This document shows, piece after piece, positions 733-30,142 of a stretch of 64,000 bases of DNA. The translations under genes and the position numbers were made by a program. Below the pieces are notes generated by a model. The model did not search any database, was not told the origin of the DNA, and was given only the letters and a program-made list of their open reading frames with translations. The DNA lies in sequence record SRR31156797_4840; one strand, 5' to 3'. Every line of letters begins with the position of its first letter. The first letter of the stretch is position 1.

Positions 733-3700
733 GTGAAACGGTTTTTAACAACTTTACTTGTTTTTCTACTAACATCAGGTCCGTGTTTTTCATATGCAAT
801 GGTAGTGGCACAAGCCGAAAGTGTTACAAAAACAAGTGAAGAACAAAGTATGTCTTCTTCTGACCCTGTCGTTTCATCGATCGACAGTCTGGAAGAGACG
901 AACGAAACTGAAGTGCAAGCATCTAGCGAACCTGCTTCGACAGATTCGTCTACAGGAGCCACTGACACAGCTTCAGCTGAAACAGAAGCTTCATCGGAAG
1001 CTGCAGAAGAAGTACAGGTGACCTTTCTGACAGACACGGAGCATGTATTTGCTAACGGGGAAACCCGCACTCAGATCAGCAAAAACAAAGGGGAAGCACT
1101 AAAAGAAAGTGATTTACCAGTTTTTGAAGATGATACTGCTTTTGAAGGTTGGTCGTTAGATGGTACGGTCTATACAAGTCAAGCGCTGACCGAATTGATT
1201 CTCACGGAGAATCAAACCTTGACCGCTGTTTTTAAACCGACTGTTAAGGCAAGAGCGGCGGACATCTCGTTGGCAGAACAATCGATCAAAGAGATCATTG
1301 CAGAAGCCGATAAAACGAAAGTGATCGCTGTACCAAGTCCAGCTGGAGATGATTCAGCATATGCAGAATACACCAATAGTGCTGAAGGGATTCGTCAAGC
1401 GTTGTTCGATATGTATCAAAACGGCAATGGCCAAGAATTTGCTTTGTATGTTGGTTCGGGTGGATCGTTGTCACTGCCAACGAATCTGACTTCAAAGACG
1501 ATTCCAGCCACAATTGATAATACCAACATGACTTTCTATGCACTACAAGGAAAAGTCAGCCGCTTGATCATCACAGGTCATGGCGATGATCCCATCACAG
1601 ATGCGACAACGTTGACTTCTGGTAGTCGAACAGTTGCACTTGGCACGGACATCTACTTCGGTTCTGATGTAGTGATTCGAAACCTCAACTATACGGGGAC
1701 GAGAATGTACATGAATGGGCATAGTCTTTCCTTGAACGGTGGTTCCACCGGCAATGGCCTAGCTATTTATGGAGGAAGCAACAATGGCGACCTTACTGGA
1801 AATCCGACGATCACTGTAAATGCGACAGGCTCTGGAACTTGGAACATCTATGGTGGGAATCAAAGCGGTGGTACATTGACTGGGAATACAGCGATTGTCG
1901 TAAATAATACGGTGGGCGGCATCAGTACGATTGCAGGAGGTGCCAATATTGGTACGATTGATGGGAACACGAATGTTGCAATCAATCGCTTGAATGGGAC
2001 ATTAGGCAGTTATTATGGCGGTGGTCTTGGAACAAATGCTTCCAATACAGCCAATGTGACAGGAAATGTTGAAACGACGATCCAGACGACCAATACAAGC
2101 TTTCGCTTAAGTGCTTTTACTGGTGGCGTTCAATATGGAAATATCGGTGGTACAATCCGCAGTACGATCTCTGGTGCAGGCGGTTGGTCAGGCACAGCCA
2201 ATCGTTTCATAGGCGGTTCATTTTATGGCAACATCGGCTCTGATCGTTCTAAGGATGCCATCGTGACTAACCTAGATGCTAGCAGTTATTCCACTGGACG
2301 TAGTGAATTTGAAGGTGGCAATCGGAATACTGGTACCATCACAGGGAACATCGTTAACACCGTGAAAGCAGGACCGAGTGCGAGCGTCGGGGGGATTGGT
2401 GATTTTAACGGCGGCGGGGGAAACAACGTTAGTACCTTGACTCAAAGTTCAATGGGGGCTTCGAATACGACGACGTATGACAATTATACCCCGGAACAAC
2501 GAGCAGCACTGGCAGAAGCAGCGGCAAGTTTTAAAGTTTATGGCGATATCACTTCTCATCTAGTCAGTGGTTCCTTTTCAAATGGCGCGATTTATTCGAC
2601 GGCAGCTGGTCGAGGCGGCTATGTTGAAGGAAATACGACGATTGAAGTTGGCACGATCACTTCGGATGGTAGTCCTGGTGGAGATGGGATTGCTTACACA
2701 GGAACCAGACCAACGAATCTAGATTACTCAACAACCAACAAAACAAGAGGAAACGCCTCTGGTTGGGACATCGTTGGTGGCGGTGGTTATCCTGGTACGG
2801 CTTGGGATATCTATATTAAAGGAAATACCAAAACGATCTTAAATAACACGGTTGCTCGCTGGACCTACGGTGGCTCCTTCTCAGGTGTCATTGAGGGGAA
2901 TTCTTCCAATACTTTGAATTCGGGGATCGTCGATACGCTAGAAGGAACAGGGTATACTGGACGCCGCGTTTACGGAGATGGACGAACGACAGTAAATAAT
3001 GGGCAAGTAGACTGGTTTTTATCTGGTGGCGGCTGGGATGACTTATTAGTGACCGGCAATGTCGCAGTAACGGTTTATGATGGGGTGATCAATGCTTCAC
3101 TCGGTGCTTCTTATGGTGTCGCTTCTTCCCACACCATTAACGGAAACTCAGATAATCGAGTGTTTGGCGGGAACTTCTCAGGCACCCCGCGTACAGGGTC
3201 TAATGGTTTTTCAGGCGGTGTTACGAACAATGGACGGTTATTAGGAAATGCTAGTTTGACATTGGATTTGAGAGATTACGATGGTGAGTTTGCTCTTCCT
3301 TCAGGAACGAATATCTCAGGTGGAAATCCGTTTAACAGTACGAATATCGTTGGGACCGACAGCTCCAATACGATTACATTGAACATATACACAAAGCCGG
3401 GCTCAGATGCACTGAATGGTGCAACGATCTATGGCGATGGTGGACGGACTGCTAGCAATACAAGAAGCGGCAAAATTTATATGAATATCCAGGCAGAAGG
3501 ATCAAGTATCGGGAATTTATACACCACGTACTATTCCAATATTTCTTCCAGCCAAATTTTAAGAGATGTCGAAATGCGGGTTCAAGGAGCCAAAAGTATC
3601 AATGGGATTTCAGGCGGAAATGCGTCAGACAACTTTACGAACACGATCGTAGCCAACAGCAGCAATCAAGTGAAGATGAGCTTTGGTGAAAATGTCGATG

Positions 3701-5601
3701 GGACAGCTTCTTATCAAACTGATCCAATCGCTGTGACGGGTCTGGGAATCGTCAACTTTACCGAATTGAATGTGACAAACGGCATCAAGCTAATGGCCAA
3801 TGGGGGAGACATCAAAAATGGCCGTTCAGCCACTGCTGCGAATCACGCAACGACCTATCATCAGTTCGGTGACATCCATCTTTCCAAGGATGCCGGTATC
3901 GGTATTTCTTCTGCAACGAATTTGATTTCAGGCGCGAAGTTAACGGTGGAAGACAAAGGGACGATTGAGTCACCGCCGGGAACGGGGCGAATCAATCTTT
4001 CAGATTTCGCAACACCAGATACGGACAAAGATCATTTAACGTGGCTGAAAACGACGACCAATGATGCAGGTTCTCGAGTCAACAGTCAAGGGACGTGGTT
4101 TGGAGCGGTTAGTGCCTATCAAGTACTGACTATAAATCCAACTGCTGCTAATGCTGCAGCGATCACGCCAATCAACTTCAGCGGGATCGAAAAAGCGACT
4201 GGGAAAACCTTCATCGGGGACAACGATGTGACCAATGCAGCCAACGGGTACGGTATTGCGATACCAGGTTCGATCATTAACTACGAAGTCGAAACACCGG
4301 GAGTCGCTAACGGGATTGGCGCCATTAGTCACAATGTAACGGCAGTCAAAGAGAACAATACGCCGCTGACCTTGCAAGCATGGGGAACTGAGCAGGCGGG
4401 GACACAGGTGCAAAAAGGGCGTTTATTGATTCCCTACACGGTAACGGAATTGCCAACATTGACGTTTACACCAGAAACCCAAACGTCCGGTTCATGGGTC
4501 TATGCGGGGCAAATCAAATCCAGCAAGCTGGATAGCACGGATCAGCAGTTGACGGAACAACCAGATTCAGAGCCAGTTGACTGGACGAGTCCTGATGGGG
4601 AGTATAGTTACGATATTAGTGTCCGCTACTCAAATAAGGCGGAAGTCCAAGCCCGCAATGTGATCCTTACAGAGCAAGAGGCACAATCGCTGACCAAAGA
4701 ACAAGCCGTGACTTATCTCGAAGCCAGCGGGCGTCCTTTCTTTAAGGATACGCTGACAGATGAGGTCTTAGCTGCGATTCAAGAACCGTTAGAAACAGCG
4801 GTCTACCGCAAACAAGCGATCACTTTTTCAGTAGGGGAAAACGATCAGAATCAGGCAGAAACTACCGTGAATCTGGTGGTGGTCAAAAATGAAAGTGTCA
4901 TTTCTGCTGATCGGCAATTTGCCGTCTATGCAAAAGATGTCCGTTTGACCTTACCAGAAGCAACGGCGCTGACAGATGAAGCCGCTTTGGCAGACTATAC
5001 CCAAGCAACCACGATTTTTGCAGATAATCGGGCAAATATACCACCGACTGTCGATCCGCAAGCTTTTGCCGCGATCCAGCAAGCAACGGAAGATGAGCTG
5101 TTGAAAAATGTATCAACGGCTTACCATTATGAAGCAGGCAGTCAACGGGCAGAAAAAGTCGTCAATGTCGCAGTTGCCGGCGAGCTTATTTTAAGCAGTG
5201 TGCCAACAGACTTTGATTTTGGGCAGCAGAAAGTTGCCACAGAAACACAAGATTATTGGCCAACGATCACAGGTGAGCTAGCGGTGAAAGATACGAGAGG
5301 GTCCGAACGGAGTCCATGGCGCTTGACGGTCAAAGAGCAACAGCCATTAACGGATGGGACAGATCAATTAACCGATGTCTTCCGCTTTGTGACAAACGGT
5401 CAAGAACAGATGATAACCAGTGGGGAAATGATCATCGAGGAAACGGAATTGACAGAAAATGGCACATACGTCGTGAATCAGCACTGGGGCGAAAGTCAGA
5501 ATGAAGGAATCAAGCTTACCGTTCCAGTCGAACAGCAAAAAGTTGGGGACTATCAAGGAACCTTGAGCTGGCAACTGGTTTCGGCACCGGGCAACCCATA
5601 A
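733..5601 (+). CDS. Large secreted WxL-domain surface protein (1622 aa), putative adhesin
   Basis: RBS AGGAGG + GTG; signal peptide; S/T/E-rich linker; long Gly/Asn/Thr-rich repeats (IYGG, GN-x-x-I-x-V); C-terminal WxL domain (FDFG...DTRG...WRLTV...YQGTLSWQL). Confidence 0.9.
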   Translation: MKRFLTTLLVFLLTSGPCFSYAMVVAQAESVTKTSEEQSMSSSDPVVSSIDSLEETNETEVQASSEPASTDSSTGATDTASAETEASSEAAEEVQVTFLTDTEHVFANGETRTQISKNKGEALKESDLPVFEDDTAFEGWSLDGTVYTSQALTELILTENQTLTAVFKPTVKARAADISLAEQSIKEIIAEADKTKVIAVPSPAGDDSAYAEYTNSAEGIRQALFDMYQNGNGQEFALYVGSGGSLSLPTNLTSKTIPATIDNTNMTFYALQGKVSRLIITGHGDDPITDATTLTSGSRTVALGTDIYFGSDVVIRNLNYTGTRMYMNGHSLSLNGGSTGNGLAIYGGSNNGDLTGNPTITVNATGSGTWNIYGGNQSGGTLTGNTAIVVNNTVGGISTIAGGANIGTIDGNTNVAINRLNGTLGSYYGGGLGTNASNTANVTGNVETTIQTTNTSFRLSAFTGGVQYGNIGGTIRSTISGAGGWSGTANRFIGGSFYGNIGSDRSKDAIVTNLDASSYSTGRSEFEGGNRNTGTITGNIVNTVKAGPSASVGGIGDFNGGGGNNVSTLTQSSMGASNTTTYDNYTPEQRAALAEAAASFKVYGDITSHLVSGSFSNGAIYSTAAGRGGYVEGNTTIEVGTITSDGSPGGDGIAYTGTRPTNLDYSTTNKTRGNASGWDIVGGGGYPGTAWDIYIKGNTKTILNNTVARWTYGGSFSGVIEGNSSNTLNSGIVDTLEGTGYTGRRVYGDGRTTVNNGQVDWFLSGGGWDDLLVTGNVAVTVYDGVINASLGASYGVASSHTINGNSDNRVFGGNFSGTPRTGSNGFSGGVTNNGRLLGNASLTLDLRDYDGEFALPSGTNISGGNPFNSTNIVGTDSSNTITLNIYTKPGSDALNGATIYGDGGRTASNTRSGKIYMNIQAEGSSIGNLYTTYYSNISSSQILRDVEMRVQGAKSINGISGGNASDNFTNTIVANSSNQVKMSFGENVDGTASYQTDPIAVTGLGIVNFTELNVTNGIKLMANGGDIKNGRSATAANHATTYHQFGDIHLSKDAGIGISSATNLISGAKLTVEDKGTIESPPGTGRINLSDFATPDTDKDHLTWLKTTTNDAGSRVNSQGTWFGAVSAYQVLTINPTAANAAAITPINFSGIEKATGKTFIGDNDVTNAANGYGIAIPGSIINYEVETPGVANGIGAISHNVTAVKENNTPLTLQAWGTEQAGTQVQKGRLLIPYTVTELPTLTFTPETQTSGSWVYAGQIKSSKLDSTDQQLTEQPDSEPVDWTSPDGEYSYDISVRYSNKAEVQARNVILTEQEAQSLTKEQAVTYLEASGRPFFKDTLTDEVLAAIQEPLETAVYRKQAITFSVGENDQNQAETTVNLVVVKNESVISADRQFAVYAKDVRLTLPEATALTDEAALADYTQATTIFADNRANIPPTVDPQAFAAIQQATEDELLKNVSTAYHYEAGSQRAEKVVNVAVAGELILSSVPTDFDFGQQKVATETQDYWPTITGELAVKDTRGSERSPWRLTVKEQQPLTDGTDQLTDVFRFVTNGQEQMITSGEMIIEETELTENGTYVVNQHWGESQNEGIKLTVPVEQQKVGDYQGTLSWQLVSAPGNP

Positions 5602-5615
5602 AGGCAGGAAAACAA

Positions 5616-5984
5616 ATGAAAAAAATCATGATCGGTATTATTGCTGGCTGTCTATTAATATTTCCTCAGCTCGTTTCAGCAGCCGAAGCAGGTGCTTATG
5701 ACAGCAATGGCATTACTTCCTTTTTCGGCGTCTATGAAGAACCAGTTGAGGAGCCAGAAGAGCCCGTAAAAGAACAGCCAGGGAATAAACAAGTTAATCA
5801 AAAAGGCAACAATATTCTGCCGGCAACAGGATCAGATCACTTCAATAGCTATCAAAGCAGTGGTCTTGTCGTTTTGTTGGCAGCAGGAATCATTTTAATC
5901 AAAAGGAGAACAAAAAATGAAAAAACTTTTCTTGACGGCAGGCATTCTATTGATGAGCACTGCTCTGTTACCAACAACCGTTAA
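5616..5984 (+). CDS. Small LPXTG cell-wall-anchored protein of the WxL locus
   Basis: Signal peptide, LPATG, hydrophobic stretch, KRR tail; mature part only about 50 aa. Confidence 0.85.
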   Translation: MKKIMIGIIAGCLLIFPQLVSAAEAGAYDSNGITSFFGVYEEPVEEPEEPVKEQPGNKQVNQKGNNILPATGSDHFNSYQSSGLVVLLAAGIILIKRRTKNEKTFLDGRHSIDEHCSVTNNR

Positions 5985-6630
5985 TGCCGCTGAATACACT
6001 TCAAATGGAGCAATCACTTTTGAAGCGGACCCGAATCCAACCAATCCAGTTGATCCGACCGATCCAGAAAAACCAGTGGATCCCGTCGATCCAACCGATC
6101 CAGATGGACCAAATCCTGGAACAGCTGGACCATTATCGATTGATTTTGCTTCAAGTTTTCAATTTGGCAACCAACTGATTACTTCTGAAACAAAAGATTA
6201 TTACGCACAGCTGCAAGAGTTCACAGCTGGCGCTGCTGGACCAAACTATGTGCAAGTAACAGATAAACGAGGAACGCAAGAAGGTTGGTCATTGAGTGTT
6301 GTGCAAAACGGACAATTCAAAACGGCTGATGACGAAGAGCTAGTCGGCGCTTCATTATCGATCGCCTCAGGTGCAGCAACTTCAGTCACCGATATGCAGT
6401 ATGCACCAACAGTTACTGCAAGTCATACCTTTGTACCCGATAGTGAAATCACCTTGGTCAATGCACCTGTCGGAAAAGGAATAGGAACTTGGATTTACAA
6501 GTTTGGGAACGATGCAACGGAAGGGTCAACGGCAGTAAAATTAAACGTACCAGGCAGTTCCGTAAAATTAGCCAAAGAGTATCGGACGACATTGACTTGG
6601 AATTTAAAGAATGTCCCTGAAAGCAATTAA
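5917..6630 (+). CDS. Small WxL-domain protein 1
   Basis: Signal peptide, PVDPTDP linker, GPLSIDFAS, VQVTDKRG..GWSL, YRTTLTWNL. Confidence 0.93.
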   Translation: MKKLFLTAGILLMSTALLPTTVNAAEYTSNGAITFEADPNPTNPVDPTDPEKPVDPVDPTDPDGPNPGTAGPLSIDFASSFQFGNQLITSETKDYYAQLQEFTAGAAGPNYVQVTDKRGTQEGWSLSVVQNGQFKTADDEELVGASLSIASGAATSVTDMQYAPTVTASHTFVPDSEITLVNAPVGKGIGTWIYKFGNDATEGSTAVKLNVPGSSVKLAKEYRTTLTWNLKNVPESN

Positions 6631-6675
6631 AATCACTGATTTTCAGTAAAACAGATAAAGGAGTGTCAAATAGAA

Positions 6676-7476
6676 ATGAAAAAAACAGCATGGGTCTTTG
6701 TAAGTCTTGCCGTCTTGGCAGCAGCGAGTGCAGCAACCGAGGTTTCAGCAGCCGAAGCGGCTTCTTACACCTCAAATGGGGCGGTTGATTTTATTCCGAA
6801 TACTGATCCGACGAACCCAGTCAATCCAGAAAATCCAGATCCAGAAAACCCGGTCAATCCTGTGGATCCAACCGATCCCGATGGACCAAATCCTGGAACG
6901 AATGGCCCATTATCGATCGATTATGCCTCTAGCTTAGATTTTGGTGTCAATAAAATCTCTAATAAAAACGAAGTCTATTATGCACGAGCACAAGGGTACT
7001 TGAACGATGATGGCACAGCTTCTACATTAAAAACTGCCAATTATGTCCAAGTAACTGATAATCGCGGTAGTAATGCCGGTTGGCGGTTGTCTGTGAAGCA
7101 AAATGGTCAATTTAAAAATGAGACGACCTTGAATAAAGAATTGACAGGTTCTGTCATCACCCTAACAAGTCCTGCCGTTAAATCAAATGCGGTTGGCGTC
7201 ACAGCTCCCGTGGCAGAAGCAACGATCACGTTGGATGCAGCCGGTGCTGAATCAGTGGTGATGACTGCAGCAAAGCAAACAGGTGCTGGAACATGGGTCA
7301 ACGCTTGGGGAAGTGTTGAGTCGATCACTGAAATAGACAAAGATGATCAAGAAGTACAAGCCGATATTACCAAAGCAGTCGCACTTTCTGTACCAGGCAG
7401 CACCCCAAAAGATGCCGTTAGCTACACGACTACATTGACTTGGGTATTATCAGATACACCAGGAACGGAAGGATAA
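6676..7476 (+). CDS. Small WxL-domain protein 2
   Basis: Paralogue of the previous gene; GWRL and YTTTLTWVL motifs. Confidence 0.93.
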   Translation: MKKTAWVFVSLAVLAAASAATEVSAAEAASYTSNGAVDFIPNTDPTNPVNPENPDPENPVNPVDPTDPDGPNPGTNGPLSIDYASSLDFGVNKISNKNEVYYARAQGYLNDDGTASTLKTANYVQVTDNRGSNAGWRLSVKQNGQFKNETTLNKELTGSVITLTSPAVKSNAVGVTAPVAEATITLDAAGAESVVMTAAKQTGAGTWVNAWGSVESITEIDKDDQEVQADITKAVALSVPGSTPKDAVSYTTTLTWVLSDTPGTEG

Positions 7477-7487
7477 GGAGTATAGAC

Positions 7488-8228
7488 ATGAAAAAAACAC
7501 TAGCATTTCTCTCAGTATTAGGCTTAAGCCTAGCAGCACCAGTGCTGGCACAAGCAGCGGACAGTGCAGAATACAACTCAAATGGACAAATCACCTTTGA
7601 ACCAAATACGGATCCAACTAATCCAATCAGCCCAACGGATCCAGATCCAGAAAATCCAATCAAACCAGTGGATCCAACGGACCCAGATGGACCAAATCCG
7701 GGAACGAACGGACCGCTATCGATTGATTTTGCTTCAAGCCTTTACTTTGGCACACAAAAAATCACCTCAAAAACAGAGATCTACCATGCGGAAACTCAAA
7801 AATATGTGGATTCAGTTGGTGATAATCAAGAAGGACCGAATTTTGTCCAAGTGACAGACAATCGGGGAACAGAGAGCGGTTGGACATTGAATGTTCGCCA
7901 AAATGGTCAGTTCAAAACAGCGGAAGATCAAGAATTGACTGCTGCGCAAATTCGTTTGACGAAGGGAACTGTGGTAACTCCTTCATTGTCACCAAAACCA
8001 TCAAATGTGAGCGCAACGATCACATTGAATCCAAATGGTGCCCAATCCTTAGTGATGAGTGCCCAAGATGGCGAAGGGGCAGGGACCTATTTAATGAGCT
8101 GGGGCGATAGTTTAGCTGCAGCCATGGATAGCATTGAGTTGGAAGTTCCAGGCTCAACGACGAAATATGCCAGCCAATACAACACCACATTTACTTGGTT
8201 ACTAACAGACACACCAACCAACCCATAA
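7488..8228 (+). CDS. Small WxL-domain protein 3
   Basis: Start moved to ATG 7488 (RBS AAGGAG, MKK signal peptide); GWTL and YNTTFTWLL motifs. Confidence 0.93.
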   Translation: MKKTLAFLSVLGLSLAAPVLAQAADSAEYNSNGQITFEPNTDPTNPISPTDPDPENPIKPVDPTDPDGPNPGTNGPLSIDFASSLYFGTQKITSKTEIYHAETQKYVDSVGDNQEGPNFVQVTDNRGTESGWTLNVRQNGQFKTAEDQELTAAQIRLTKGTVVTPSLSPKPSNVSATITLNPNGAQSLVMSAQDGEGAGTYLMSWGDSLAAAMDSIELEVPGSTTKYASQYNTTFTWLLTDTPTNP

Positions 8229-8237
8229 GTACCAGCT

Positions 8238-8270
8238 TTCTCCTTGAACCTCGAAAGGGTTCAAGGAGAA
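8238..8270 (+). other. Strong intergenic stem-loop without U-tract
   Basis: 13-bp perfect stem TTCTCCTTGAACC/GGTTCAAGGAGAA. Confidence 0.7.
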
Positions 8271-8295
8271 TACATAGAAAGAAGGGACATCCATC

Positions 8296-9378
8296 ATGAA
8301 AAAAATCAAACAGCTTTTGGCGCTCCTATTCGCAAGTATTTTCTTTTTTGTACCAACCATAGGAACCGCTTCTGAATTTAACTTTGCCGTCAATCCAGTG
8401 ATTCCAGAGAATCAAATCGATAAAGAAAAGACTTATTTTGACTTGAAAATGGAGCCAGGAGCGGTTCAAACTGTAGAAGTCCAATTGCGCAATGACACCG
8501 ATCAAGAGGTCGTCATCGCGCCAGTGATCGCTTCTGCTACTACGAATCTAAACGGGGTCGTGGAATATGGCGAAAACGACATCGAAGCGGACGAAACCTT
8601 GCCTTATGATATGGCTGATTTGATTGAAGTGGAGGAAGAGATCACGATCCCGAAACAATCCCAAATCACCTTACCCTTAAAGATCAGTATGCCCTCAGAA
8701 TCGTTTGAAGGGGTTATTGCCGGTGGTTTGACCTTGAAAGAAACGACAGCGGAAACCGATACTGCTGACAGTGAAGAAGACCAAGGGTTAGCCATCAAGA
8801 ATGAGTATGCCTATGTCGTTGCGATTTTACTCCGTCAAAATACAACAGAAGTCACGCCGGATCTAAAACTGCTGGATGTTGGACCGGGACAAGTCAACGC
8901 TCGCAATACCATCAATGTTACGTTGCAAAATCCTGAATCAGCTTACTTAAATTCCTTACGGTTGATCAATGAAGTGAAGAAGAAAGGCGATAGTGACGTC
9001 TTGTATGCTTCAGATACCTCACGAATGCAAATGGCACCTAATTCAAACTTCTCGTACCCAATTTCCTTGGAAGGACAACGTTTAGAAGCAGGGACCTATG
9101 TGTTGACTTCCGTGGCCTATGGTGGGAAAAGCGATGAAGGACAATACAAAGTGGAGAATGAAGAAGGCGAGGAAGAAAGCTATCTCTATAAATGGAGCTT
9201 CGAAAAAGAATTCACAGTGACTGGCGATGTTGCTCGTGATCTTAATAAGAAAGATGTGACGATCGAAACAGATTACACGTGGCTTTACTTCTTGATCGGC
9301 GGTCTGTTGCTGCTGCTCGCCTTACTGCTGCTTTTATGGTACCGACGAAAGAAAAAAAATGAAACGGATGAAGCGTGA
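8296..9378 (+). CDS. DUF916/DUF3324 WxL-interacting membrane protein
   Basis: FAVNPVIPENQ..TYFDL, ATTNLNGVVEY, NEYAYVVAI, MAPNSNF motifs; C-terminal TM + basic tail. Confidence 0.92.
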   Translation: MKKIKQLLALLFASIFFFVPTIGTASEFNFAVNPVIPENQIDKEKTYFDLKMEPGAVQTVEVQLRNDTDQEVVIAPVIASATTNLNGVVEYGENDIEADETLPYDMADLIEVEEEITIPKQSQITLPLKISMPSESFEGVIAGGLTLKETTAETDTADSEEDQGLAIKNEYAYVVAILLRQNTTEVTPDLKLLDVGPGQVNARNTINVTLQNPESAYLNSLRLINEVKKKGDSDVLYASDTSRMQMAPNSNFSYPISLEGQRLEAGTYVLTSVAYGGKSDEGQYKVENEEGEEESYLYKWSFEKEFTVTGDVARDLNKKDVTIETDYTWLYFLIGGLLLLLALLLLLWYRRKKKNETDEA

Positions 9379-10168
9379 GCACCTTGAGAAATACTTGATC
9401 GATGGCTTGATCATCGCAGGTATCCTCTTGTTGGCACTTCCTTTTTTAAAAGAAAGCATCGTCAGTTGGCAATTACGCACAAGCGAATTGACGATAGCGA
9501 CCCAGCTGCCGACAACGATTCCAGAAGAAGAAACGATTCAAATGCCGGCTCTAGGGGATGTATTGGCTCCGCAGTCGGCAACGATCACCGGGTACGGCTT
9601 TGTTGCAATTGAAGCGATCGAGTTCCAGCAGCCGCTATTGGTGGGGATAACCAATCAGCAGCTGCTGAAAGGCGGTGTCGTGATGTTTCCGGAACGTTTG
9701 TTAAAAAATAACAATTTTGTCGTTTTAGGGCATCATCTCGGTAGACAAAGTTTGTTATTTGGTCAATTGCTAGAAGCACAGGTGGGGATGGAAGTGTCCG
9801 TAACCTACCTCGAGGAACGCCAGCAGTATATTATTATCGATAAAAAAGTCGTAGATGAATCCGACTTGTCGGTTCTAACAGATGACCAGACACCAAAGTT
9901 GACATTGATTACTTGTCCCACACCTACTCGAACAGAAGAACGCTACGTGCTGACAGCGATTCCTGTTGAGCAAGCAACTGCCGGGCAGTCGCAAAACACA
10001 GCGACCATGGGCAGTACGTCACAAGGCGCAAGAGTGTTGGCTCAAAAACAAGAAATGTTATGGAAACAACAATCTGAAAAAAATTGGTTTCTTTTATTTG
10101 TTATTTTATTTATAATTAGTGGATGTCTGCTTGGCGTTCACAAACTGTTGAAACGTTCAGCGCCGTAG
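9359..10168 (+). CDS. Sortase (class A-like catalytic core, extra C-terminal TM)
   Basis: N-terminal TM; GHH (His), TLITC (Cys), downstream Arg (EERYV). Confidence 0.9.
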   Translation: MKRMKREHLEKYLIDGLIIAGILLLALPFLKESIVSWQLRTSELTIATQLPTTIPEEETIQMPALGDVLAPQSATITGYGFVAIEAIEFQQPLLVGITNQQLLKGGVVMFPERLLKNNNFVVLGHHLGRQSLLFGQLLEAQVGMEVSVTYLEERQQYIIIDKKVVDESDLSVLTDDQTPKLTLITCPTPTRTEERYVLTAIPVEQATAGQSQNTATMGSTSQGARVLAQKQEMLWKQQSEKNWFLLFVILFIISGCLLGVHKLLKRSAP

Positions 10169-10212
10169 AAAGAGCATCAAAAAGAAGCTCTGTTGATAAG
10201 GAGGGTGAAGAA

Positions 10213-10704
10213 ATGAAACGCAGATTTGGTTTTGTCATTGGTGCCTGCATGATTATTGGAATGATCGATCTTGTCACAGAACAAGTTGTTTTTGCGACTA
10301 TCTATAATCCGCTAGACCCCTCAGAAGAAATCGTCCCAACGGATCCGCCAGAAGGAAGTACGGAAAAAGCAGATGAACCGCCTGCAGAAAAGGAAGAATC
10401 CAAAGAATCGCCGGCTCCTGAACCGGAACCTGTTCCGAAAAAAGAACAGGAACAATCCGCATTTCCAGAGAGCAGTTTTTTGGAAAAACAGAAGCACTTA
10501 GCACAACGAGTCATGTTAGAAGATGTTTTTGCGTCGGATCGTTTGGCTGTCGATTTAGCACTGCCGGGAAATAATACGGATGGTGACGGGGATGACAAAC
10601 CTTCGTATCTTGCCAGCTTATGCTATCTATTTTCAGGAAACGTTCTTTATGGCCAAAAAAATAACGGAGGCTTGAAAACGCATGTTTGTGACATTTTTGA
10701 ATAA
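10213..10704 (+). CDS. Hypothetical exported Pro/Glu-rich protein
   Basis: ATG 10213 after GAGGGTG; signal-peptide-like N-terminus; overlaps both neighbours' operon context. Confidence 0.65.
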   Translation: MKRRFGFVIGACMIIGMIDLVTEQVVFATIYNPLDPSEEIVPTDPPEGSTEKADEPPAEKEESKESPAPEPEPVPKKEQEQSAFPESSFLEKQKHLAQRVMLEDVFASDRLAVDLALPGNNTDGDGDDKPSYLASLCYLFSGNVLYGQKNNGGLKTHVCDIFE

Positions 10705-12142
10705 GGCGGACAAACGAAAATTGATGATGCTGCAATATTTGGAAAACGCAGTCGCTCTTTCTGAAACGAAGGAAACATTGATGGACCAATTGACCATGTC
10801 GGAATTTCTGATCAATAAGACCGTTCAAGAATTGAATCTTGATTTTTATGAACTAGGATTGAATGAGGAATTTGAGATCGTGACCGATGGGACGGTCATT
10901 AAACTGAATGCCTCCGGGCTGGCAACTTCAGACACACTACTGACCTATTATCTAGATCAAGCGTTAAAATTTTCTATGTTGAAAGAATGCTTTTTTGAGC
11001 AATTGTCTTCTTTATACGAATTTGCTACCAATCACTATCTAAGTCATAATCCCGTCTATAAAGAATTTAAACAGTTTAAACTGATCTTGAAAGAATACGA
11101 CATTGAAGTGACGAAAGAGTTTCAGCTGGTGGGTGAAGAAAGTGAGATTCGGGAGTTTATTTTTCTCTTTTTTATGAAGGAATATTATTTGAACCATTCC
11201 CCTTTCCCAAAAGGTATCTTGGACAAAGAAAAAACCTTTGATCGATTCAATGAAAGTACTTGGCTGAATCCAGAACAGTCTGCCCGCATGCGGATTCGCA
11301 AGAAACATTATCTAGGTATTGTTTTGGCGCGGATGTCTAAAGGACATTTCATGCAAAACAGTGTGGAAAACGATTTAGTCTTGCCAAAACATTTAGTGAT
11401 CATTGAAGATTTGAAGCGTTGGTTGCAGGAGATCTTGACGATCAACGATCAAGAAGTCCTAGAACGTGAGGCACGAGATATTTTGCGCTTCTTGATCGTT
11501 GAAGGCTGGTTGATCGACAACAATAGCTACATCGACCAAGAACAAACCTATATCCAACAATTAAACGAGCAGTTTATTCAGGCAGTCCAACAGCAGTTTT
11601 CGCTAACCACTGACACGTTGGCGCTGCTTCATGTCGAAACGACTACGATTCATTACCAGCTCTTGTCGTTTTCTTTTAGTTCTCGTTATGAATACCAATA
11701 CATGGATGTCACATATTTTCTTGAGACGTATCCTGAATATGCTGCGTTTTGCCGCAACTATCTGGAAGAAAGTCGTAATCGACCGATCTTATGGAACAAT
11801 AAAGAGTTTTTGTTTTTTAGATACCTAATTTTATTAGTTTCTACGATTCCACTAAAAGAGATTTTGGTTCCTTTATATGTCTGTGTTGATTTTTCGTTTG
11901 GTGATTCCTACAACCAGATGATCAAAAAGAATATTGAAAAAATTCTCGATTTGAATGTGCAATTCCAGAGTTACCCAGATGATCATACGCACCTGATTCT
12001 TTCAAACCTGCCATTTTATGGTGCGTTGGGGATCGACCATATTTTATGGCTAGCACCACCTAGACCCATCGATTGGGCCAATTTTACTGAAAAAATCAGC
12101 GTGATTCGCAGAGAACAATTTCAAACCAAAACGGCACAGTGA
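10682..12142 (+). CDS. Mga/AtxA-like HTH transcriptional regulator
   Basis: About 490 aa; two N-terminal HTH regions, LVGEESEIR motif, C-terminal EIIB-like segment; RBS GGAGG. Confidence 0.85.
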   Translation: MFVTFLNKADKRKLMMLQYLENAVALSETKETLMDQLTMSEFLINKTVQELNLDFYELGLNEEFEIVTDGTVIKLNASGLATSDTLLTYYLDQALKFSMLKECFFEQLSSLYEFATNHYLSHNPVYKEFKQFKLILKEYDIEVTKEFQLVGEESEIREFIFLFFMKEYYLNHSPFPKGILDKEKTFDRFNESTWLNPEQSARMRIRKKHYLGIVLARMSKGHFMQNSVENDLVLPKHLVIIEDLKRWLQEILTINDQEVLEREARDILRFLIVEGWLIDNNSYIDQEQTYIQQLNEQFIQAVQQQFSLTTDTLALLHVETTTIHYQLLSFSFSSRYEYQYMDVTYFLETYPEYAAFCRNYLEESRNRPILWNNKEFLFFRYLILLVSTIPLKEILVPLYVCVDFSFGDSYNQMIKKNIEKILDLNVQFQSYPDDHTHLILSNLPFYGALGIDHILWLAPPRPIDWANFTEKISVIRREQFQTKTAQ

Positions 12143-12202: not shown

Positions 12203-12350
12203 GCAGAAATCTACCATATGCAAAAAGCACACAGGGATCTATTGCCCTGATGAAGTGTTCGGATAAGGTCTGTGAAAAAGGACCATTTGATAGGATTTTT
12301 TTTTAGTAGAAAATTTGGTATGATAGAAAGAGAAGAAAAAGAGGTGCCCT

Positions 12351-13906: not shown

Positions 13907-14266
13907 TTACGCGTGCTTGTTTTTGACTTCTGCGAGTCGCCAAGCGGTCATCACAGCGATCAGTTCGTAAGGGATCGGCTGTGCAAAAGAAAACTGGACC
14001 GCCCCTTTACTGGTCTTGTATGGTTGTAAGTCCTCTTGGAAGGCCGTGATCGCAGAAGGCGTGGGATAAAAGCCTAGATGCTGTTTGGCGCAGGCAAAAT
14101 GTACGATATTTTCTCCCTGATGATAAGTAGGCATTTGATAACTGATCTTTTCAACCGCTTCAGGTAAAACGGCTTTGATGGTTTGACGGACCTTTCTTAA
14201 AATCGCTTGTCGTTCTGCTGGAGCTGCTGCAATGTATTGGTCAACTGTCGTAATGGCTGTTGTCAT
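13907..14266 (-). CDS. DUF1801/YdhG-like protein (iron chaperone family)
   Basis: TVDQYI, EKISYQMPTY, HLGFYP, SKGAVQF motifs; start ATG 14266 with RBS GGAGGTG. Confidence 0.88.
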   Translation of the reverse strand: MTTAITTVDQYIAAAPAERQAILRKVRQTIKAVLPEAVEKISYQMPTYHQGENIVHFACAKQHLGFYPTPSAITAFQEDLQPYKTSKGAVQFSFAQPIPYELIAVMTAWRLAEVKNKHA

Positions 14267-14306
14267 AGGCCACCTCCTGCCTTTAGTATACGGCAAACCC
14301 CGTAAG

Positions 14307-14386
14307 AAAAAAAGGAGCCTGTCAGTGGGTAGCTGACAGGCAAGGAGTAAAAATGAAAAGTGTTAGTTAGGGTTGTTTGTTGGGTT
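14307..14386 (-). ncRNA. Putative small RNA copy 1 (about 80 nt, csRNA-like architecture)
   Basis: Minus-strand -10 TATAGT (14393-14398), conserved CU-rich body, GC stem 14317-14341 + U-tract; paralogue 162 bp away. Confidence 0.75.
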
Positions 14387-14469
14387 ATGTATACTATACT
14401 GTCCAAATATGAATTTTTTGTGGAGAAAAGATTGGAAAGTGTTTAAGTTTGCTGGCTGCGAAAATAAGT

Positions 14470-14548
14470 AAAAAAAGACCCGTCGGTGGGTGGCCGACGG
14501 GAAGGAGTTAAAAATGAAAAAGTGTTAGTTAGGGTTGTTTGTTGGTAT
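14470..14548 (-). ncRNA. Putative small RNA copy 2 (about 80 nt)
   Basis: Minus-strand -10 TATACT (14555-14560), near-identical body, covarying terminator stem 14479-14501 + U-tract. Confidence 0.75.
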
Positions 14549-14626
14549 ACATAGAGTATACGAGATAAATATGAATATTCTGTGACAAATCTTTTCGGAA
14601 GTTCTTAAGAAATCGTAACGGTTTGG

Positions 14627-16132
14627 TTACAGAGAAAGGTTCTTTTCATCAAAACGGTTTTTCAACGTACGATACAAATCAATGTATTGCCGATCGTCTG
14701 CCGCATAATCCCAAATATAACTCATTTTTTCTGGTTTGAGTTTTTTCATCAACTGATTGGAACTAACGATGACATCATAATTTTCTTGCTGGTTTAGATC
14801 ATAAGGTTCTGCTGCTACGAAGGTCAAGTCATGTAGGAATTGATTCAATCCTTGAACGACTAAGAAATTATCTTCTAACGCAACCCCTACCCGTAAACGA
14901 TTCGAATAACGGATTTGATCATAAAACGGCAGCAGGGCGTGGGTATACATCGTTGCCATCTGCTCTTGGTTTTCATCATTGATATAGTCCACCGCTGATT
15001 CTTCGCGATAGTTCGTTAAGAATTCATCGATTTTTTGCTGCAGCTGCTCTTCAGCAGACCCGCGATTGATCGAGGGTGTCAGCAAGCGATAGATATTTGG
15101 AAACGGCTGACGGAAAACGTAGTTGCCGAAAGTCACATTGATTAAATTACCCACGACCAATGGCTCGTCTAACAGGCCAGGTTGTGAAGCAAAGAAGGTT
15201 GCTTTCATCTCTGCTAACAAGTCTGCGACTAACGGATAAACTGGGTTTTGTTTGCTTGAAAAGAATTGCAAGGTTTGTTGCAAAGCTTCTTCTTCAGGAC
15301 TCAAGTAGAATGGGAAGATTTGCGCCATCAAATAAATAAACCCTGATTCGCCTTTTAATTGTTTGTCTGTCATTGAAACTTCAGGATCAACGACTTGTGT
15401 CAAACGCTCAAAATCGAAATATGGATTATTTTTCATCAGGAAATTGTACCGCTTGTCGTATTTGGCAAAATTCCCTTTTTTGATTCGTAAAAGAATCAAG
15501 GCGGCGAAATACTTCAACTCTAATCGGCCAAGATAAGAATGAGTCATTGGGAAATACTCCGTGAATCGATCCACCATTTTTTCTGTCTCACTCTCAGCGA
15601 TCGCAAATGGCCATTCTATTCCACGAGTACCTAACCAAATGATATTGAATAGGGAGAGCCGCACAAGACGCTCATCGCCCACTAAGTTTGATTCAGTGTA
15701 CGTAAAGCGAAGCTGAAATTGCTTCAAATGTTTTTTTAGATGTTCAAATTTGCGAGACACCGTTGAACGACTGACATCGTATTTTGCACAAAAATCCGTG
15801 ATCGTAGGATTGTCTTCATTCAGCATGTAAAGAACATATAAGAACGGAACGCTTTTATTCAATAAATAGAAGCGGTATTCATCGATCGTTACCGCGATAT
15901 TCTGAGGCTGTAATTTACCGCCACGACCGAGTATCGACATATGATCCGGAGTTAACTCAGTTAGATCTTGGTCGATCTCAGTCAACTCTATAAAAGCTTG
16001 TTGGTAGCTTAACTCCATTTCCTTTGCCAATTGTGCGATTGGGTGGCTAGGGTTTTGCAGAGTCAGCATACGCCGGAATATTTTAAATTTAATTAATGTT
16101 TGCGGGTCCATCATAAGTTCTTCATAAAACAT
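14627..16132 (-). CDS. Mga-like HTH transcriptional regulator
   Basis: 501 aa; TITDFCAKYDVSRSTVSR HTH, LVGDERLVR motif. Confidence 0.85.
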   Translation of the reverse strand: MFYEELMMDPQTLIKFKIFRRMLTLQNPSHPIAQLAKEMELSYQQAFIELTEIDQDLTELTPDHMSILGRGGKLQPQNIAVTIDEYRFYLLNKSVPFLYVLYMLNEDNPTITDFCAKYDVSRSTVSRKFEHLKKHLKQFQLRFTYTESNLVGDERLVRLSLFNIIWLGTRGIEWPFAIAESETEKMVDRFTEYFPMTHSYLGRLELKYFAALILLRIKKGNFAKYDKRYNFLMKNNPYFDFERLTQVVDPEVSMTDKQLKGESGFIYLMAQIFPFYLSPEEEALQQTLQFFSSKQNPVYPLVADLLAEMKATFFASQPGLLDEPLVVGNLINVTFGNYVFRQPFPNIYRLLTPSINRGSAEEQLQQKIDEFLTNYREESAVDYINDENQEQMATMYTHALLPFYDQIRYSNRLRVGVALEDNFLVVQGLNQFLHDLTFVAAEPYDLNQQENYDVIVSSNQLMKKLKPEKMSYIWDYAADDRQYIDLYRTLKNRFDEKNLSL

Positions 16133-18553: not shown

Positions 18554-20143
18554 TTATTCGTTCGGGTTGATGTCTTCTAATTTGACATACGCACTGGGAC
18601 CATCCATTTTGCGTTCAACAAAGCGCAAGATCTGGGTGGCACTGATGGTCAAGACTAAGTAGATCACACCGATGATCGCAAATGTTTGGAAGTATTGGAA
18701 GTTCGTTCCAGCGGCTGATGTACCTTGGAAGAAGAGGTCTGCAACACTGATGACACTTAAGACGGCAGTATCTTTGATATTGATAATGATCTCATTCCCG
18801 GTAGCTGGTAAAATATTGCGCATCACTTGCGGCAACACGACCTTGATCATGGTTTGCCAATGGGTCATTCCGATGGCTTGAGCTGCTTCAAATTGGCCGT
18901 CATCTACAGCAAAAATCCCCCCACGAACGATTTCAGACATGTAGGCACCCGTATTGATAGAAACGATCAGCACGGCTGCCAGCGTGCGATTCATGGAGAC
19001 ACCAAAGGCTAGAGCAGTTCCGTAGAAAATAACCATTGCTTGAACCATCATTGGGGTGCCGCGGAAAACTTCGATATAAATGGTCAGTAAACCATTGACG
19101 ATGCGTTGGAAGAAACGTCCTACTGGATTTTCTGAAAGCGGCAATGTCCGGAAGATACCGACTAAAAGACCGATAATCAATCCGATGATCGTTGAAAGGA
19201 TCGCGATGAATAAGGTCAAGCCAGCGCCTCGTAAAAAGAGCATGCCGTAATCATCAATGATTTTTTTAAAATCAGCGATCAGACCTTGATCCGCTGTTTC
19301 TCCGCTGGCATCTGCAGGTTGATCTAAGACTGCTTGATCCATCAGGGAAACCCGTTCTTCTTCAGAAATTCCTGCAAGAATCTCATTGACTTTTTCAACA
19401 TCGGGATCGCCTTTGCGCATTCCGACTGCTACTTGGACGTCTTCTGGGTTGGTTTCAAAACCGGCTCCTTCATCGAACTCGACCATCTTCAAATCAGGAT
19501 TTGCACCGACGGCAGTGACGCCTTCTGGACGTTCGCTGACGTAGCCGTCAATGATGCCCGAAGCTAAAGCAACGCGCATGGAGGAGAAGTCCCGCATGGC
19601 TTGTTCTTTTTGGACCTCAGGGATTTGATCTATGACGGTATAATGGAAAGTATTCAGCTGGGCAGTGATTTTTGCCCCCGAAAGATCAGCGAGGCTTTTG
19701 GCATCGGCGAACTCGCCATCTTTACGAACCACTACCACCAAATCTGATTCATAGTAAGGATCGGTAAAATCAATTTGCTCGCGACGTTCGGCAGTTGGTG
19801 ACATACCAGCGATCACAGCATCGATAGTCCCCGCTTGCAAAGCTGGCGGCAAACCGTCCCATTGGGTTTTGACGATCACTAATTCTTTGCCTAAGCCTTC
19901 AGCGATTCGTTTGGCGATCTGGACATCGTAACCGCCGGCAAACGCCGAGCCTTCTTCCCCAGAAATCGGCACGGCACCATTGGCGTCCGTCGTTTGCGTC
20001 CAGTTAAATGGGGCATAGCCTGCCTCCATACCGACACGGAATTGTTCCGCAGGCGTTTGGTCATCCGCTTGCACGGTTAGGGGCAGCTGAATGAGGGTTA
20101 GACAGAGGGCGAAGACTGCCCAGATCCAATTATTTTTTTTCAT
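18554..20143 (-). CDS. Fused substrate-binding/permease amino acid ABC subunit (probably lysine)
   Basis: [11 protein letters not shown] binding domain + FRGTPMMVQ permease; lysine riboswitch upstream. Confidence 0.92.
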
Positions 20144-20232: not shown

Positions 20233-20261
20233 GACAGGTCATCGTCGACAAACCTTTCACA

Positions 20262-20430
20262 AAACATAGCGCAACTTAGACAAGCTAAGACAGTCCGCAA
20301 ATTGTTCATTTGCGGCCCAACAAAATCGATGCAAGCAAAACCGACCTTGTTTCGGCGATGTTCCCTAGCTCTGCTGTAAACGTGTTGCTTCACTCAGCAG
20401 GATTAATGAACCTCGCGACCTCTACCTAAA
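20262..20430 (-). promoter_or_regulatory. Lysine riboswitch (L-box)
   Basis: Minus strand reads AGAGGUCGC...AGGGAACAUCGCCGAA...UUGGGCCGCAAAUGAACAAUUUGCGGACUGUC...GCGCUAU, the hallmark L-box segments. Confidence 0.92.
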
Positions 20431-20579
20431 TGTTAAAGGGTACTCGTATTTAATTTGATTCTTCTCAGAGTTTAGAAGAAAAGCACCCAAATGTCAATTC
20501 TTTTTAACAAAAAAACGACCATTTCCCTATTTTTATCAAAGAGAAAGCGGATCGTTTTTACGAGTGTCTATTGGAACCC

Positions 20580-26876: not shown

Positions 26877-26894
26877 ACAACTCAACAAGAATAA

Positions 26895-27162
26895 TGAATC
26901 TGTTGAGAAGGAAAGTAACCGCGGATACTTTAAAGAGAGACTCTGGTTGGTGGAAAGAGTCAAGTCAGAAGCGATGAAAAATGGCCTTGGAGGATTGATT
27001 GTCGATAAGTAGGCAATCACGGATGCGCACTACCGTTACAAAGTGCACCAATCTCTAGCACGGCTAGACGTTGGGTTGAGGGAAGGGAAACCTTCTAAAC
27101 AAAAGGTGGTAACACGAGTATTCGTCCTTTTACTAGCAAACGCTGGTAAAAGGACTTTTTTT
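26895..27162 (+). promoter_or_regulatory. T-box riboswitch 1 (Met specifier)
   Basis: AGAGA box, GGTG loop, specifier ATG at 26981-26983, T-box AAGGTGGTAACACG, terminator GTCCTTTTAC/GTAAAAGGAC-T7. Confidence 0.9.
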
Positions 27163-29302: not shown

Positions 29303-30142
29303 ATGAAAAAAATCGTACAATCAATCGTCTTAGGGGCAGCATTATTATTTATTACAGGATGCGGAAACAATGGCAGTGCCGCAGCCACTGATCAAGAAGA
29401 AGTCACTGTGAAATTAGGAGTGATTGGCGCGGACACCGATGTCTGGGATGATGTCAAAGATCGTTTAAAAGACGAAGGCATCAATTTAGAATATGTCCAA
29501 TTCTCTGATTACAATCAACCCAACGCAGCATTAGCTGATGGTTCCATTGACCTCAATTCATTCCAACACCAATTTTTCTTGGATAATTATAATAAAGAAT
29601 TTGGTACCAATCTCGTATCGATCGGCAATACAGTCAACGCGCCATTAGGCATTTATTCCGACAAAGTGACGGATGTCAACGACTTGGCTGAAGGAGCTAA
29701 AGTTGCGATCCCGAATGATGTGACCAATGGTGGTCGGGCATTGCTCTTGTTACAATCAGCTGGATTGATCAAAGTGGATGAAGCAGCCGGACAAACACCA
29801 ACGGTCGCGGATATTACTGAAAACCGTTTGAATTTAGAAATTTCGGAACTTGATGCAGCGCAAACAGCCCGGGCACTTTCCGATGTCGATGTTTCTGTTA
29901 TCAATAGCGGCATGGCGGTAGATGCAGGATTTGTGCCTACCGAAGATGCAATCTTTTTAGAGCCTGTTGATGAAACGGCCCGTCCTTACGTCAACATCAT
30001 TGCCGCCCGTAAAGAAGATGAAGACAATGAAGTTTACCAAAAAGTGGTTGCTGCTTACCAAACAGAGGATACGAAAAAAGTCATCGAGGAAACGTCAAAA
30101 GGATCAAGTGTTCCTGCTTGGGAAACCTTTGGAGCAAAATAA
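29303..30142 (+). CDS. metQ: Methionine ABC substrate-binding lipoprotein (MetQ/NlpA)
   Basis: Lipobox ITGC; FSDYNQPN, NSFQH, PNDVTNGGRAL. Confidence 0.93.
   Translation: MKKIVQSIVLGAALLFITGCGNNGSAAATDQEEVTVKLGVIGADTDVWDDVKDRLKDEGINLEYVQFSDYNQPNAALADGSIDLNSFQHQFFLDNYNKEFGTNLVSIGNTVNAPLGIYSDKVTDVNDLAEGAKVAIPNDVTNGGRALLLLQSAGLIKVDEAAGQTPTVADITENRLNLEISELDAAQTARALSDVDVSVINSGMAVDAGFVPTEDAIFLEPVDETARPYVNIIAARKEDEDNEVYQKVVAAYQTEDTKKVIEETSKGSSVPAWETFGAK

Follow-up and report, generated by a model that had tools for sequence, protein, structure and literature searches.

Tandem small RNA genes of an Enterococcaceae-wide sibling family, with a promoter box shared with htrA and predicted pairing to the start regions of exported-protein genes

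The 64,000-nucleotide stretch of DNA considered here (sequence record SRR31156797_4840, hereafter the window) carries on its minus strand two small RNA (sRNA) units, A and B, which follow one shared plan and whose starts lie 162 nt apart (Table 1). An initial annotation, made from the letters alone, had described two such units, each with its own -10 element and terminator, and sequence, fold and terminator scan confirm that they are a real pair of sRNA genes. The predicted first nucleotide is an A in both; for unit A it was placed by the spacing to the -10 element and by the published starts of homologues. Each unit opens with a 5' tract of about 45 nt that is unpaired, free of G and contains the motifs CAU and ACUCCUU, in which the complementarity to a Shine-Dalgarno (SD) sequence, an AUG and Lys codons that had been claimed for the seed was recovered.

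Both RNAs fold into this open 5' tract followed by a single hairpin, with energies of -15.1 kcal/mol for unit A (z -4.5) and -16.0 kcal/mol for unit B (z -6.3) that none of 200 shuffles equalled. Pairwise alignment of the two units gave a mean column identity of 82% and contains the core that they had been said to share. Two double changes from C-G to U-A separate their terminator stems, which keep C-rich loops (CCACCCA and CUACCCA), so that the compensatory changes seen earlier also hold. A terminator consensus scan called both hairpins on the minus strand only, with three terminator-like sites against 1.1 expected from shuffles. The pair exceeds chance, being part of a family that numbers hundreds of copies. 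Of the RNA runs examined, X11 contains the whole stretch as one long record, which may be DNA and cannot show transcription, X19 and X21 gave no reads on the units, and in X20 three reads of 90-95% likeness stem from a relative's copy and run into its promoter; none of this speaks for or against expression of the units.

Table 1. Positions of the sRNA units, their parts, neighbouring genes and nearby candidate targets in the window.
Feature	Position	Strand	Description and basis
sRNA unit A	14548..14470	-	about 79 nt; 47-nt open 5' tract (14548-14502), then terminator, U-run ending 14470
sRNA unit B	14386..14307	-	about 80 nt; plan of unit A, U-run before CAU 1 nt shorter; U-run ending 14307
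Unit A anti-start CAU / anti-SD ACUCCUU	14516-14514 / 14508-14502	-	open in fold; near-invariant in 82 distinct copies
Unit B anti-start CAU / anti-SD ACUCCUU	14355-14353 / 14348-14342	-	sequence, fold, conservation
Unit A terminator hairpin	14501-14479	-	CCCGTCGG / CCGACGGG; 8 pairs, C-rich loop CCACCCA
Unit B terminator hairpin	14341-14317	-	GCCTGTCAG / CTGACAGGC; 9 pairs, C-rich loop CUACCCA
Unit A promoter	14555..14586	-	GTCACA 14586-14581, TTCATA 14575-14570 (11-bp period), 9 nt, -10 TATACT 14560-14555; no -35 hexamer
Unit B promoter	14393..14424	-	TCCACA 14424-14419, TTCATA 14413-14408, 9 nt, -10 TATAGT 14398-14393
Upstream neighbour, Mga-type helix-turn-helix regulator, 501 aa	14627..16132	-	Pfam PF05043, E 2.3e-17
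Downstream neighbour, DUF1801 protein, 119 aa	13907..14266	-	Pfam PF08818, E 2.7e-16
Candidate targets nearby: three WxL genes (5917, 6676, 7488) and WxL-interacting protein gene (8296)	5917..9378	+	Pfam

The genome nearest to the window (G001) has 77% of the sampled words in common with it and contains the 311-nt locus with 100% identity. A genome-wide copy search, as the initial annotation had advised, found five more copies on another contig of G001, seven in total, all with the same promoter pattern; the string TTCAYATTT-N6-TATNNT occurs eight times in this genome, and seven of the occurrences belong to these sRNA genes. A covariance model (R1) was built from the seven copies, the window units included, and scores unit A at 87.0 bits and unit B at 84.2 bits. 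Within the GTDB genus, R1 found 4-7 copies in every one of eight genomes, and it matched 133 of 134 Enterococcaceae genomes from 17 of 17 GTDB genera, with 1-18 matches per genome, often in tandem at a spacing of 160-250 nt; the sole genome without a match is 76% complete. On a sample of the order, the model matched 20 of 20 Enterococcaceae, and outside the family three of 131 genomes, weakly (37-41 bits). The highest number, 18 matches, was found in a single genome (G120), the other matching family genomes having 1-11. The minus-strand siblings of G001 lie in one region (L016, G001:C37:50000-66000) at positions 12340, 10374, 5666, 5488 and 5309, three of them in tight tandem, and are flanked by plus-strand transporter genes (ECF S-component, duplicated ABC ATPase, CbiQ, ABC-2 permease and SBP_bac_5).

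Conservation was assessed on an alignment of 109 copies (82 distinct) from 41 sources. The first 45 nt or so are near-invariant and free of G, the first G falling at a median of nt 46. In the terminator stem, 8 of 9 pairs show double changes, the covariation score was reached by none of 500 shuffles, and 92.3% of cells are paired against 20-47% in slid controls, figures that somewhat favour the structure as the alignment was fitted to the model. This combination, an open tract that stays unchanged next to a stem that drifts with compensation, is expected of a base-pairing seed followed by a mere terminator. The many tandem and dispersed copies might suggest a selfish or neutral intergenic repeat without regulatory role, but the 5' tract is invariant across 17 genera while the stem covaries, and every copy keeps a promoter at fixed spacing. 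Moreover, the hairpin arms form the terminator itself (terminator hairpins being the only ones looked for), and homologues are reported to be highly expressed (PMC7724050), so we regard a neutral repeat as very improbable. We give still less credence to a plus-strand micro-open reading frame as the functional product. Read in reverse complement, the tract does offer a perfect ribosome-binding site (AAGGAG-N6-ATG) and encodes MKKC plus stop in 64 of 82 distinct copies. However, frame or peptide differs in 17 of the 82, and one copy lacks the ATG motif; unit B reads MKSVS; the identity of the peptide follows from nucleotide invariance, and terminators, conserved promoter and published primary starts all lie on the minus, or RNA, strand.

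These primary starts come from published work, and the caution in the initial annotation that an enterococcal member might already have been described proved well founded. For sRNA_112, sRNA_005, sRNA_109 and sRNA_093, Michaux et al. (2020; PMC7724050) list in their start-site table the 50 nt that precede each start. Exact matches to these strings were found for sRNA_112 and sRNA_109 in an Enterococcus faecalis-like genome (G009), for sRNA_005 in G042 and for sRNA_093 in G039, and in these three genomes the final 28 letters or so of the four strings directly precede ATACCAAC. As the published strings are identical to the genome strings, the published primary starts are therefore the A of AUACCAAC; and as the promoter strings of E. 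faecalis sRNA_112 and Enterococcus faecium sRNA_005 stand before AUACCAAC copies, the family has already been detected and its starts mapped. At these loci R1 scores 67.3 bits for sRNA_112, 71.9 for sRNA_005, 32.4 for sRNA_109 and 41.5 for sRNA_093. According to the same study, the first 50 nt are conserved, CopraRNA places targets of sRNA_112 and sRNA_005 among lipoproteins and ABC transporters, the E. faecium sRNA is 83 nt long and ends in an intrinsic terminator, and the two most highly expressed of the predicted E. faecium sRNAs are sRNA_005, in first place, and sRNA_093 (supplement to PMC7724050).

The window units resemble sRNA_112 and sRNA_005 in 5' sequence and in the conserved first 50 nt or so; they too form one hairpin, are predicted to start at the A of AUACCAAC behind a promoter of matching geometry, and are similarly short (79 nt for unit A and 80 nt for unit B, counted from the predicted start through the U-run). 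By an eye count, unit A differs from the G009 copy behind the sRNA_112 promoter at about two of the first 47 nt. The geometry of the window promoters is identical to that of the published start-site strings, the window starts themselves being predicted from sequence. Unlike sRNA_112 and sRNA_005, the window units come from another species and form two tandem copies, with five more on another contig of G001. Judged by their sequence, they are thus new members of a described enterococcal family, and not of RF02846 as Rfam defines it; sRNA_109, sRNA_093 and the Ref84 RNA (sRNA 84) of Rfam are more distant, diverged paralogues. The main text of Michaux et al. uses none of the words sibling, paralog or tandem and, in the passages searched, presents the RNA as one conserved pair (figures and PDF supplements lay outside the search). 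A literature search found sRNA_112 and sRNA_005 named in this study only and no papers for 'sibling sRNAs' with Enterococcus, again outside figures and PDF supplements such as the alignment of Figure 6 and the northern blots of Michaux et al.; the Grad-seq paper has no entry for them in its main text under the names searched. As far as these searches reach, three features seem to be new: that the family consists of multi-copy siblings, that it shares a regulator box with htrA, and that its seed mirrors the starts of exported-protein genes. Identity with E. faecium Ern0160 was considered and rejected, as Ern0160 lies at 231 kb and sRNA_005 overlaps the putative sRNA_0080 of Sinel at 178.8 kb.

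The comparison with Rfam that the initial annotation had recommended gave a single relevant match, Ref84 (RF02846), below the gathering threshold. In a permissive scan of positions 14200-14700, unit A reached 23.9 bits (E 0.91; gathering score 52), and unit B had no match to Ref84 at E up to 10. Ref84, or Enterococcus sRNA 84, was reportedly introduced by Innocenti and colleagues in 2015. Like Ref84, the window units begin with an unpaired UACCAAC...AACC, continue with CAUUUU, ACUCCUU and a terminator, and belong to a family restricted to Enterococcaceae. Ref84 has two stem-loops, whereas the window units form only the terminator hairpin, stem-loop 1 being deleted in the model alignment. Five or more loci of the wider family are present in the E. 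faecalis-like genome G009. A preprint on sRNA 84 finds this RNA needed for gut colonisation and states in its Discussion that the cues controlling its expression are unknown (Bowden et al., 2025; PMC12642391); the words paralog, copies, promoter and Shine-Dalgarno are absent from its text, figures and PDF supplements lying outside the search.

In a promoter logo of 108 distinct copies of the family, the -10 element occupies positions -12 to -7. No -35 hexamer is present; upstream of the -10 element a hexamer is repeated at a period of 11 bp, as tTCAcA at -38 to -33 and as TTCAcA at -27 to -22. The C at -36 in the first hexamer and the C at -25 and the A at -24 and -22 in the second are each found in 107 of the 108 copies. 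The combined pattern of promoter box, -10 element and ATACCAAC occurs in 121 of 134 family genomes and had no control matches. Such a direct-repeat arrangement is the layout of a putative site for an OmpR/PhoB-type response regulator. On the plus strand, a sigma-70-like match at 14260-14289 (TTGTCA-18-TAGTAT, 9/12) would read antisense through both units; promoter-like matches were no commoner in the window than in shuffles.

A scan of four genomes for the whole architecture gave 20 matches against two in the control. Matches other than the sRNA genes precede htrA (in two genomes), a gene for a class B penicillin-binding protein, ireB, the gene of a peptide-binding lipoprotein and a conserved membrane-protein operon; those before ireB and the penicillin-binding protein gene lie at G001:C41:57506-57536 and G001:C51:34635-34665. 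The string TTCATA-N5-TTCAMA-N9-TAGACT stands immediately upstream of htrA in each of six genomes, one per genus, that were inspected, and this pattern was found in 88 of 134 family genomes from 13 of 17 genera, once in 87 of them and twice in one, with no control matches. Taken by itself, the strict repeat TTCAYA-N5-TTCAYA is not enriched over its control, and it does not capture the sRNA promoters, in which the upstream half reads G/A-TCACA. Since the box is common to the sRNA genes and htrA, the RNAs probably share one envelope or secretion-stress regulon with htrA. In G001 a box-bearing htrA lies about 25 kb from the L016 siblings, on the same contig.

As to the regulator, the box-bearing membrane-protein operon stands tail-to-tail with genes for an OmpR-type regulator and a HAMP histidine kinase in five of six genera examined, and this PieRS-like two-component system is our best candidate, predicted from gene order and motif. 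The operon next to it (L165, G009:C1:1099500-1107500, as well as L166 and L167-L169) comprises two genes behind a box TCATA-N6-TCAWA-N9-TATACT; its products are a membrane protein of 234-244 aa and a protein of 183-214 aa weakly like ABC ATPases. LisR was set aside as the regulator, as no consensus for it is printed and its responsive element is placed elsewhere (PMC4132741).

The initial annotation had likened the pair to the streptococcal csRNAs and the Listeria LhrC siblings, and the architecture agrees with this comparison, which is strengthened by the response-regulator-type repeat shared with htrA. The CiaR regulon includes htrA and sibling csRNAs with tracts complementary to SD and AUG, and its box NTTAAG-N5-TTTAAG lies 10 nt before the -10 element (PMC3091779). 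In Listeria, the LhrC siblings are driven by the envelope-stress system LisRK (PMC4132741), and in both groups pairing with SD and start codon is tied to repression (PMC3091779; PMC4132741). Like the csRNAs, the enterococcal RNAs occur as several siblings per genome, carry anti-SD and anti-AUG motifs in an unpaired stretch followed by a terminator, have a hexamer-N5-hexamer in place of the -35 element 9-10 nt before the -10 element and a start 7 nt after it, and have an htrA with the same box. They differ in the repeat, which is (G/T)TCACA plus TTCAYA at 9 nt before the -10 element and not NTTAAG/TTTAAG, in showing no sequence similarity and no Rfam csRNA match (scans of the window and of 14200-14700), and in that most family members have one hairpin where csRNAs have two. 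With LhrC1-5 they have in common the multicopy, partly tandem organisation, the paucity of G, the C-rich terminator loop and a link to envelope stress, which here would follow from the htrA box; LhrC blocks the SD of surface-protein and lipoprotein mRNAs, and the enterococcal units are predicted to do likewise. Unlike LhrC, they gave no Rfam LhrC match (gathering scan of the window; permissive scan of 14200-14700); the LhrC seed is UCCC in loops, and the LisR-responsive element lies upstream of -53 and not at -38 to -22. LisRK also controls htrA. By analogy, the arrangement described here would be an enterococcal counterpart of CiaRH/csRNAs/htrA or LisRK/LhrC/htrA, with the same logic and a different box.

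Targets were predicted on 795 genes called heuristically on 880 kb (six contig stretches of G001 plus the window) by computing the duplex energy of nt 1-47 of unit A with positions -25 to +30 of each gene. The 76 signal-peptide-like genes had a mean energy of -15.62 kcal/mol, compared with -12.58 kcal/mol for the rest, a difference of -3.04 that none of 40 shuffles reached. The difference from other genes was -5.68 kcal/mol for 16 lipoproteins and -3.46 kcal/mol for 36 genes with MKK starts, likewise reached by none of 40 shuffles. Both halves of the tract contribute to this bias (0/25 shuffles each): the 3' half pairs with SD, AUG and Lys codons, and the CA-rich 5' half with the G/U-rich codons that follow. 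Where it is open, the reverse complement of the copies itself resembles a signal peptide, as in MKKCLLGLFVG. The computation thus supports a preference of the seed for the start regions of signal-peptide genes. The best candidate in the window is the WxL gene at 6676, which was not among the targets named earlier, with a predicted -25.0 kcal/mol and rank 7 of 795.

We consider it probable, with some reserve, that the units are separate trans-acting sRNA genes of an Enterococcaceae-wide sibling family which belong to an htrA-linked regulon and lower the synthesis of exported proteins by pairing with start regions. Each unit would be transcribed from a promoter in which the direct repeat TTCAYA-N5-TTCAYA takes the place of the -35 element and ends 9 nt before the -10 element, and an OmpR/PhoB-type response regulator would act at this repeat, as at the same box before htrA. 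The open tract would then pair with SD, AUG and Lys codons, and its CA-rich front with G/U-rich signal-peptide codons; such pairing would block binding of the 30S subunit and result in less lipoprotein, WxL and LPXTG protein. Occlusion of the ribosome-binding site on exported-protein mRNAs appears to be the most likely mode of action, by a slight preference. The anatomy of the units, their place in the family, its pattern of conservation, the box in common with htrA and the computed bias in targets are shown by the sequence analysis, whereas we infer repression as the sign of regulation, the identity of the regulator and expression in this strain.

Several observations count against this interpretation. 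Firstly, the mean duplex energy over all genes (-12.87 kcal/mol, compared with -11.66, standard deviation 0.88, for 40 shuffles) and the counts of strong duplexes are unexceptional, in keeping with the earlier warning that chance matches are to be expected, as overall pairing is no better than with composition-matched shuffles. The gene and signal-peptide classes were moreover home-made heuristics, the shuffles were mononucleotide shuffles and site accessibility was ignored. Targets that the initial annotation had named fared no better than middling: rank 161 of 795 for the WxL gene at 5917, 133 for that at 7488, 213 for the metQ-like gene at 29303 and 166 for the lysine-riboswitch transporter at 20143, with the WxL-interacting protein gene at 8296 ranking 677. 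Secondly, Ref84 proper occupies a separate locus in G009 (112.6 bits) and has a different promoter, and deletion of sRNA 84, the paralogue, lowers WxL and LPXTG transcripts and proteins, which suggests activation or an indirect effect (PMC12642391). Thirdly, the assignment of a PieRS-like regulator is based on one adjacent operon, and the best NCBIfam names of the regulator and kinase, PieR and PieS, both fall below the curated cut-offs. PhoP is a less likely regulator, as the PHO boxes of pstS in G001, G009 and G042 read TTTACA with an 11-bp period and have a third letter unlike the invariant C; the published CroR motif, TTTATTAA (PMC9426447), does not match the sRNA box, and CroR was rejected.

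That the overall pairing is no stronger than with shuffles would also suit abundant decoys, which would titrate a protein or the 30S subunit through the unstructured CA- and U-rich tract. Among the predicted sRNAs of E. faecium, the homologue ranks first in abundance (PMC7724050), and up to 18 copies are present per genome. Yet the whole 45 nt are invariant and the spacing of CAU and ACUCCUU is fixed, the real letter order favours signal-peptide genes (0/40 shuffles), the tract is devoid of GGA motifs for CsrA, and the main text of the Grad-seq paper is silent on these RNAs under the names searched; a decoy function seems to us quite improbable.

More weight is due to the idea, unlikely as we judge it, that the units are genuine family RNAs which activate or stabilise surface-protein mRNAs, as has been proposed for sRNA 84. 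In E. faecalis OG1RF, 18 of the 25 genes differentially expressed upon deletion of sRNA 84 were lowered, many of them encoding WxL, LPXTG or MucBP proteins, and WxL proteins fell (PMC12642391). IntaRNA found complementarity of sRNA 84 in both clusters, direct binding not being shown by that study (PMC12642391), and in our window the WxL cluster lies 4-13 kb from the units. However, a drop in a knock-out can be indirect, and sRNA 84 is a different branch of the family, the window units forming another subfamily with 23.9 bits to Ref84. In addition, their invariant tract covers SD and start codon, which is the geometry of repression in csRNAs and LhrC. The proposal in the initial annotation that MKK-starting exported proteins are repressed therefore stands in its first part, the preference for their start regions (0/40 shuffles); the repression itself found no such backing, as the only knock-out, that of the paralogue sRNA 84, has the opposite sign.

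To our knowledge, a target, signal or mechanism has been established for few enterococcal small RNAs. A more specific version of the repression reading, which we put forward tentatively and rate below even chances, is that one OmpR-type regulator, with the PieRS-like protein as candidate, binds TTCAYA-N5-TTCAYA and switches on htrA together with 1-18 siblings per genome, made up of sRNA_112/005, sRNA_109/093 and their tandem copies; their invariant G-free tract, an antisense image of SD, AUG, two Lys codons and signal peptide, would throttle the translation of exported proteins as a class, and sRNA 84 would be a diverged branch. If this holds true, Enterococcaceae would own an undescribed envelope or secretion-stress circuit like those of CiaRH and LisRK. 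On the sequence evidence, the E. faecium sRNA of highest abundance, E. faecalis sRNA_112 and the tandem copies of the window are one sibling family, and knock-outs of single copies in species with 4-18 of them will understate its function. The shared htrA box and the exported-protein seed make these predictions directly testable in hospital pathogens and commensal enterococci.

The surroundings of the units contain further loci of interest. The candidate WxL targets are part of a complete plus-strand WxL cluster at 733-10704, which encodes a protein of 1622 aa that matches no Pfam family, one of 122 aa, three WxL proteins, a WxL-interacting protein with peptidoglycan-binding and host-binding domains, and small membrane proteins. 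It is followed by a gene for an Mga-type regulator (10682-12142), and the upstream neighbour of unit A is a second one (minus strand). The 'lysine-binding protein' of the initial annotation corresponds to a 529-aa fusion of SBP_bac_3 and an ABC permease (18554-20143, minus strand). A lysine riboswitch (20259-20432, minus strand, 79 bits) lies directly upstream, so that a cis-regulator is already present there. Further along, a T-box leader at 26894-27132 (plus strand, 110.9 bits) precedes an ABC transporter operon whose last gene, at 29303, encodes the NlpA/MetQ-type lipoprotein.

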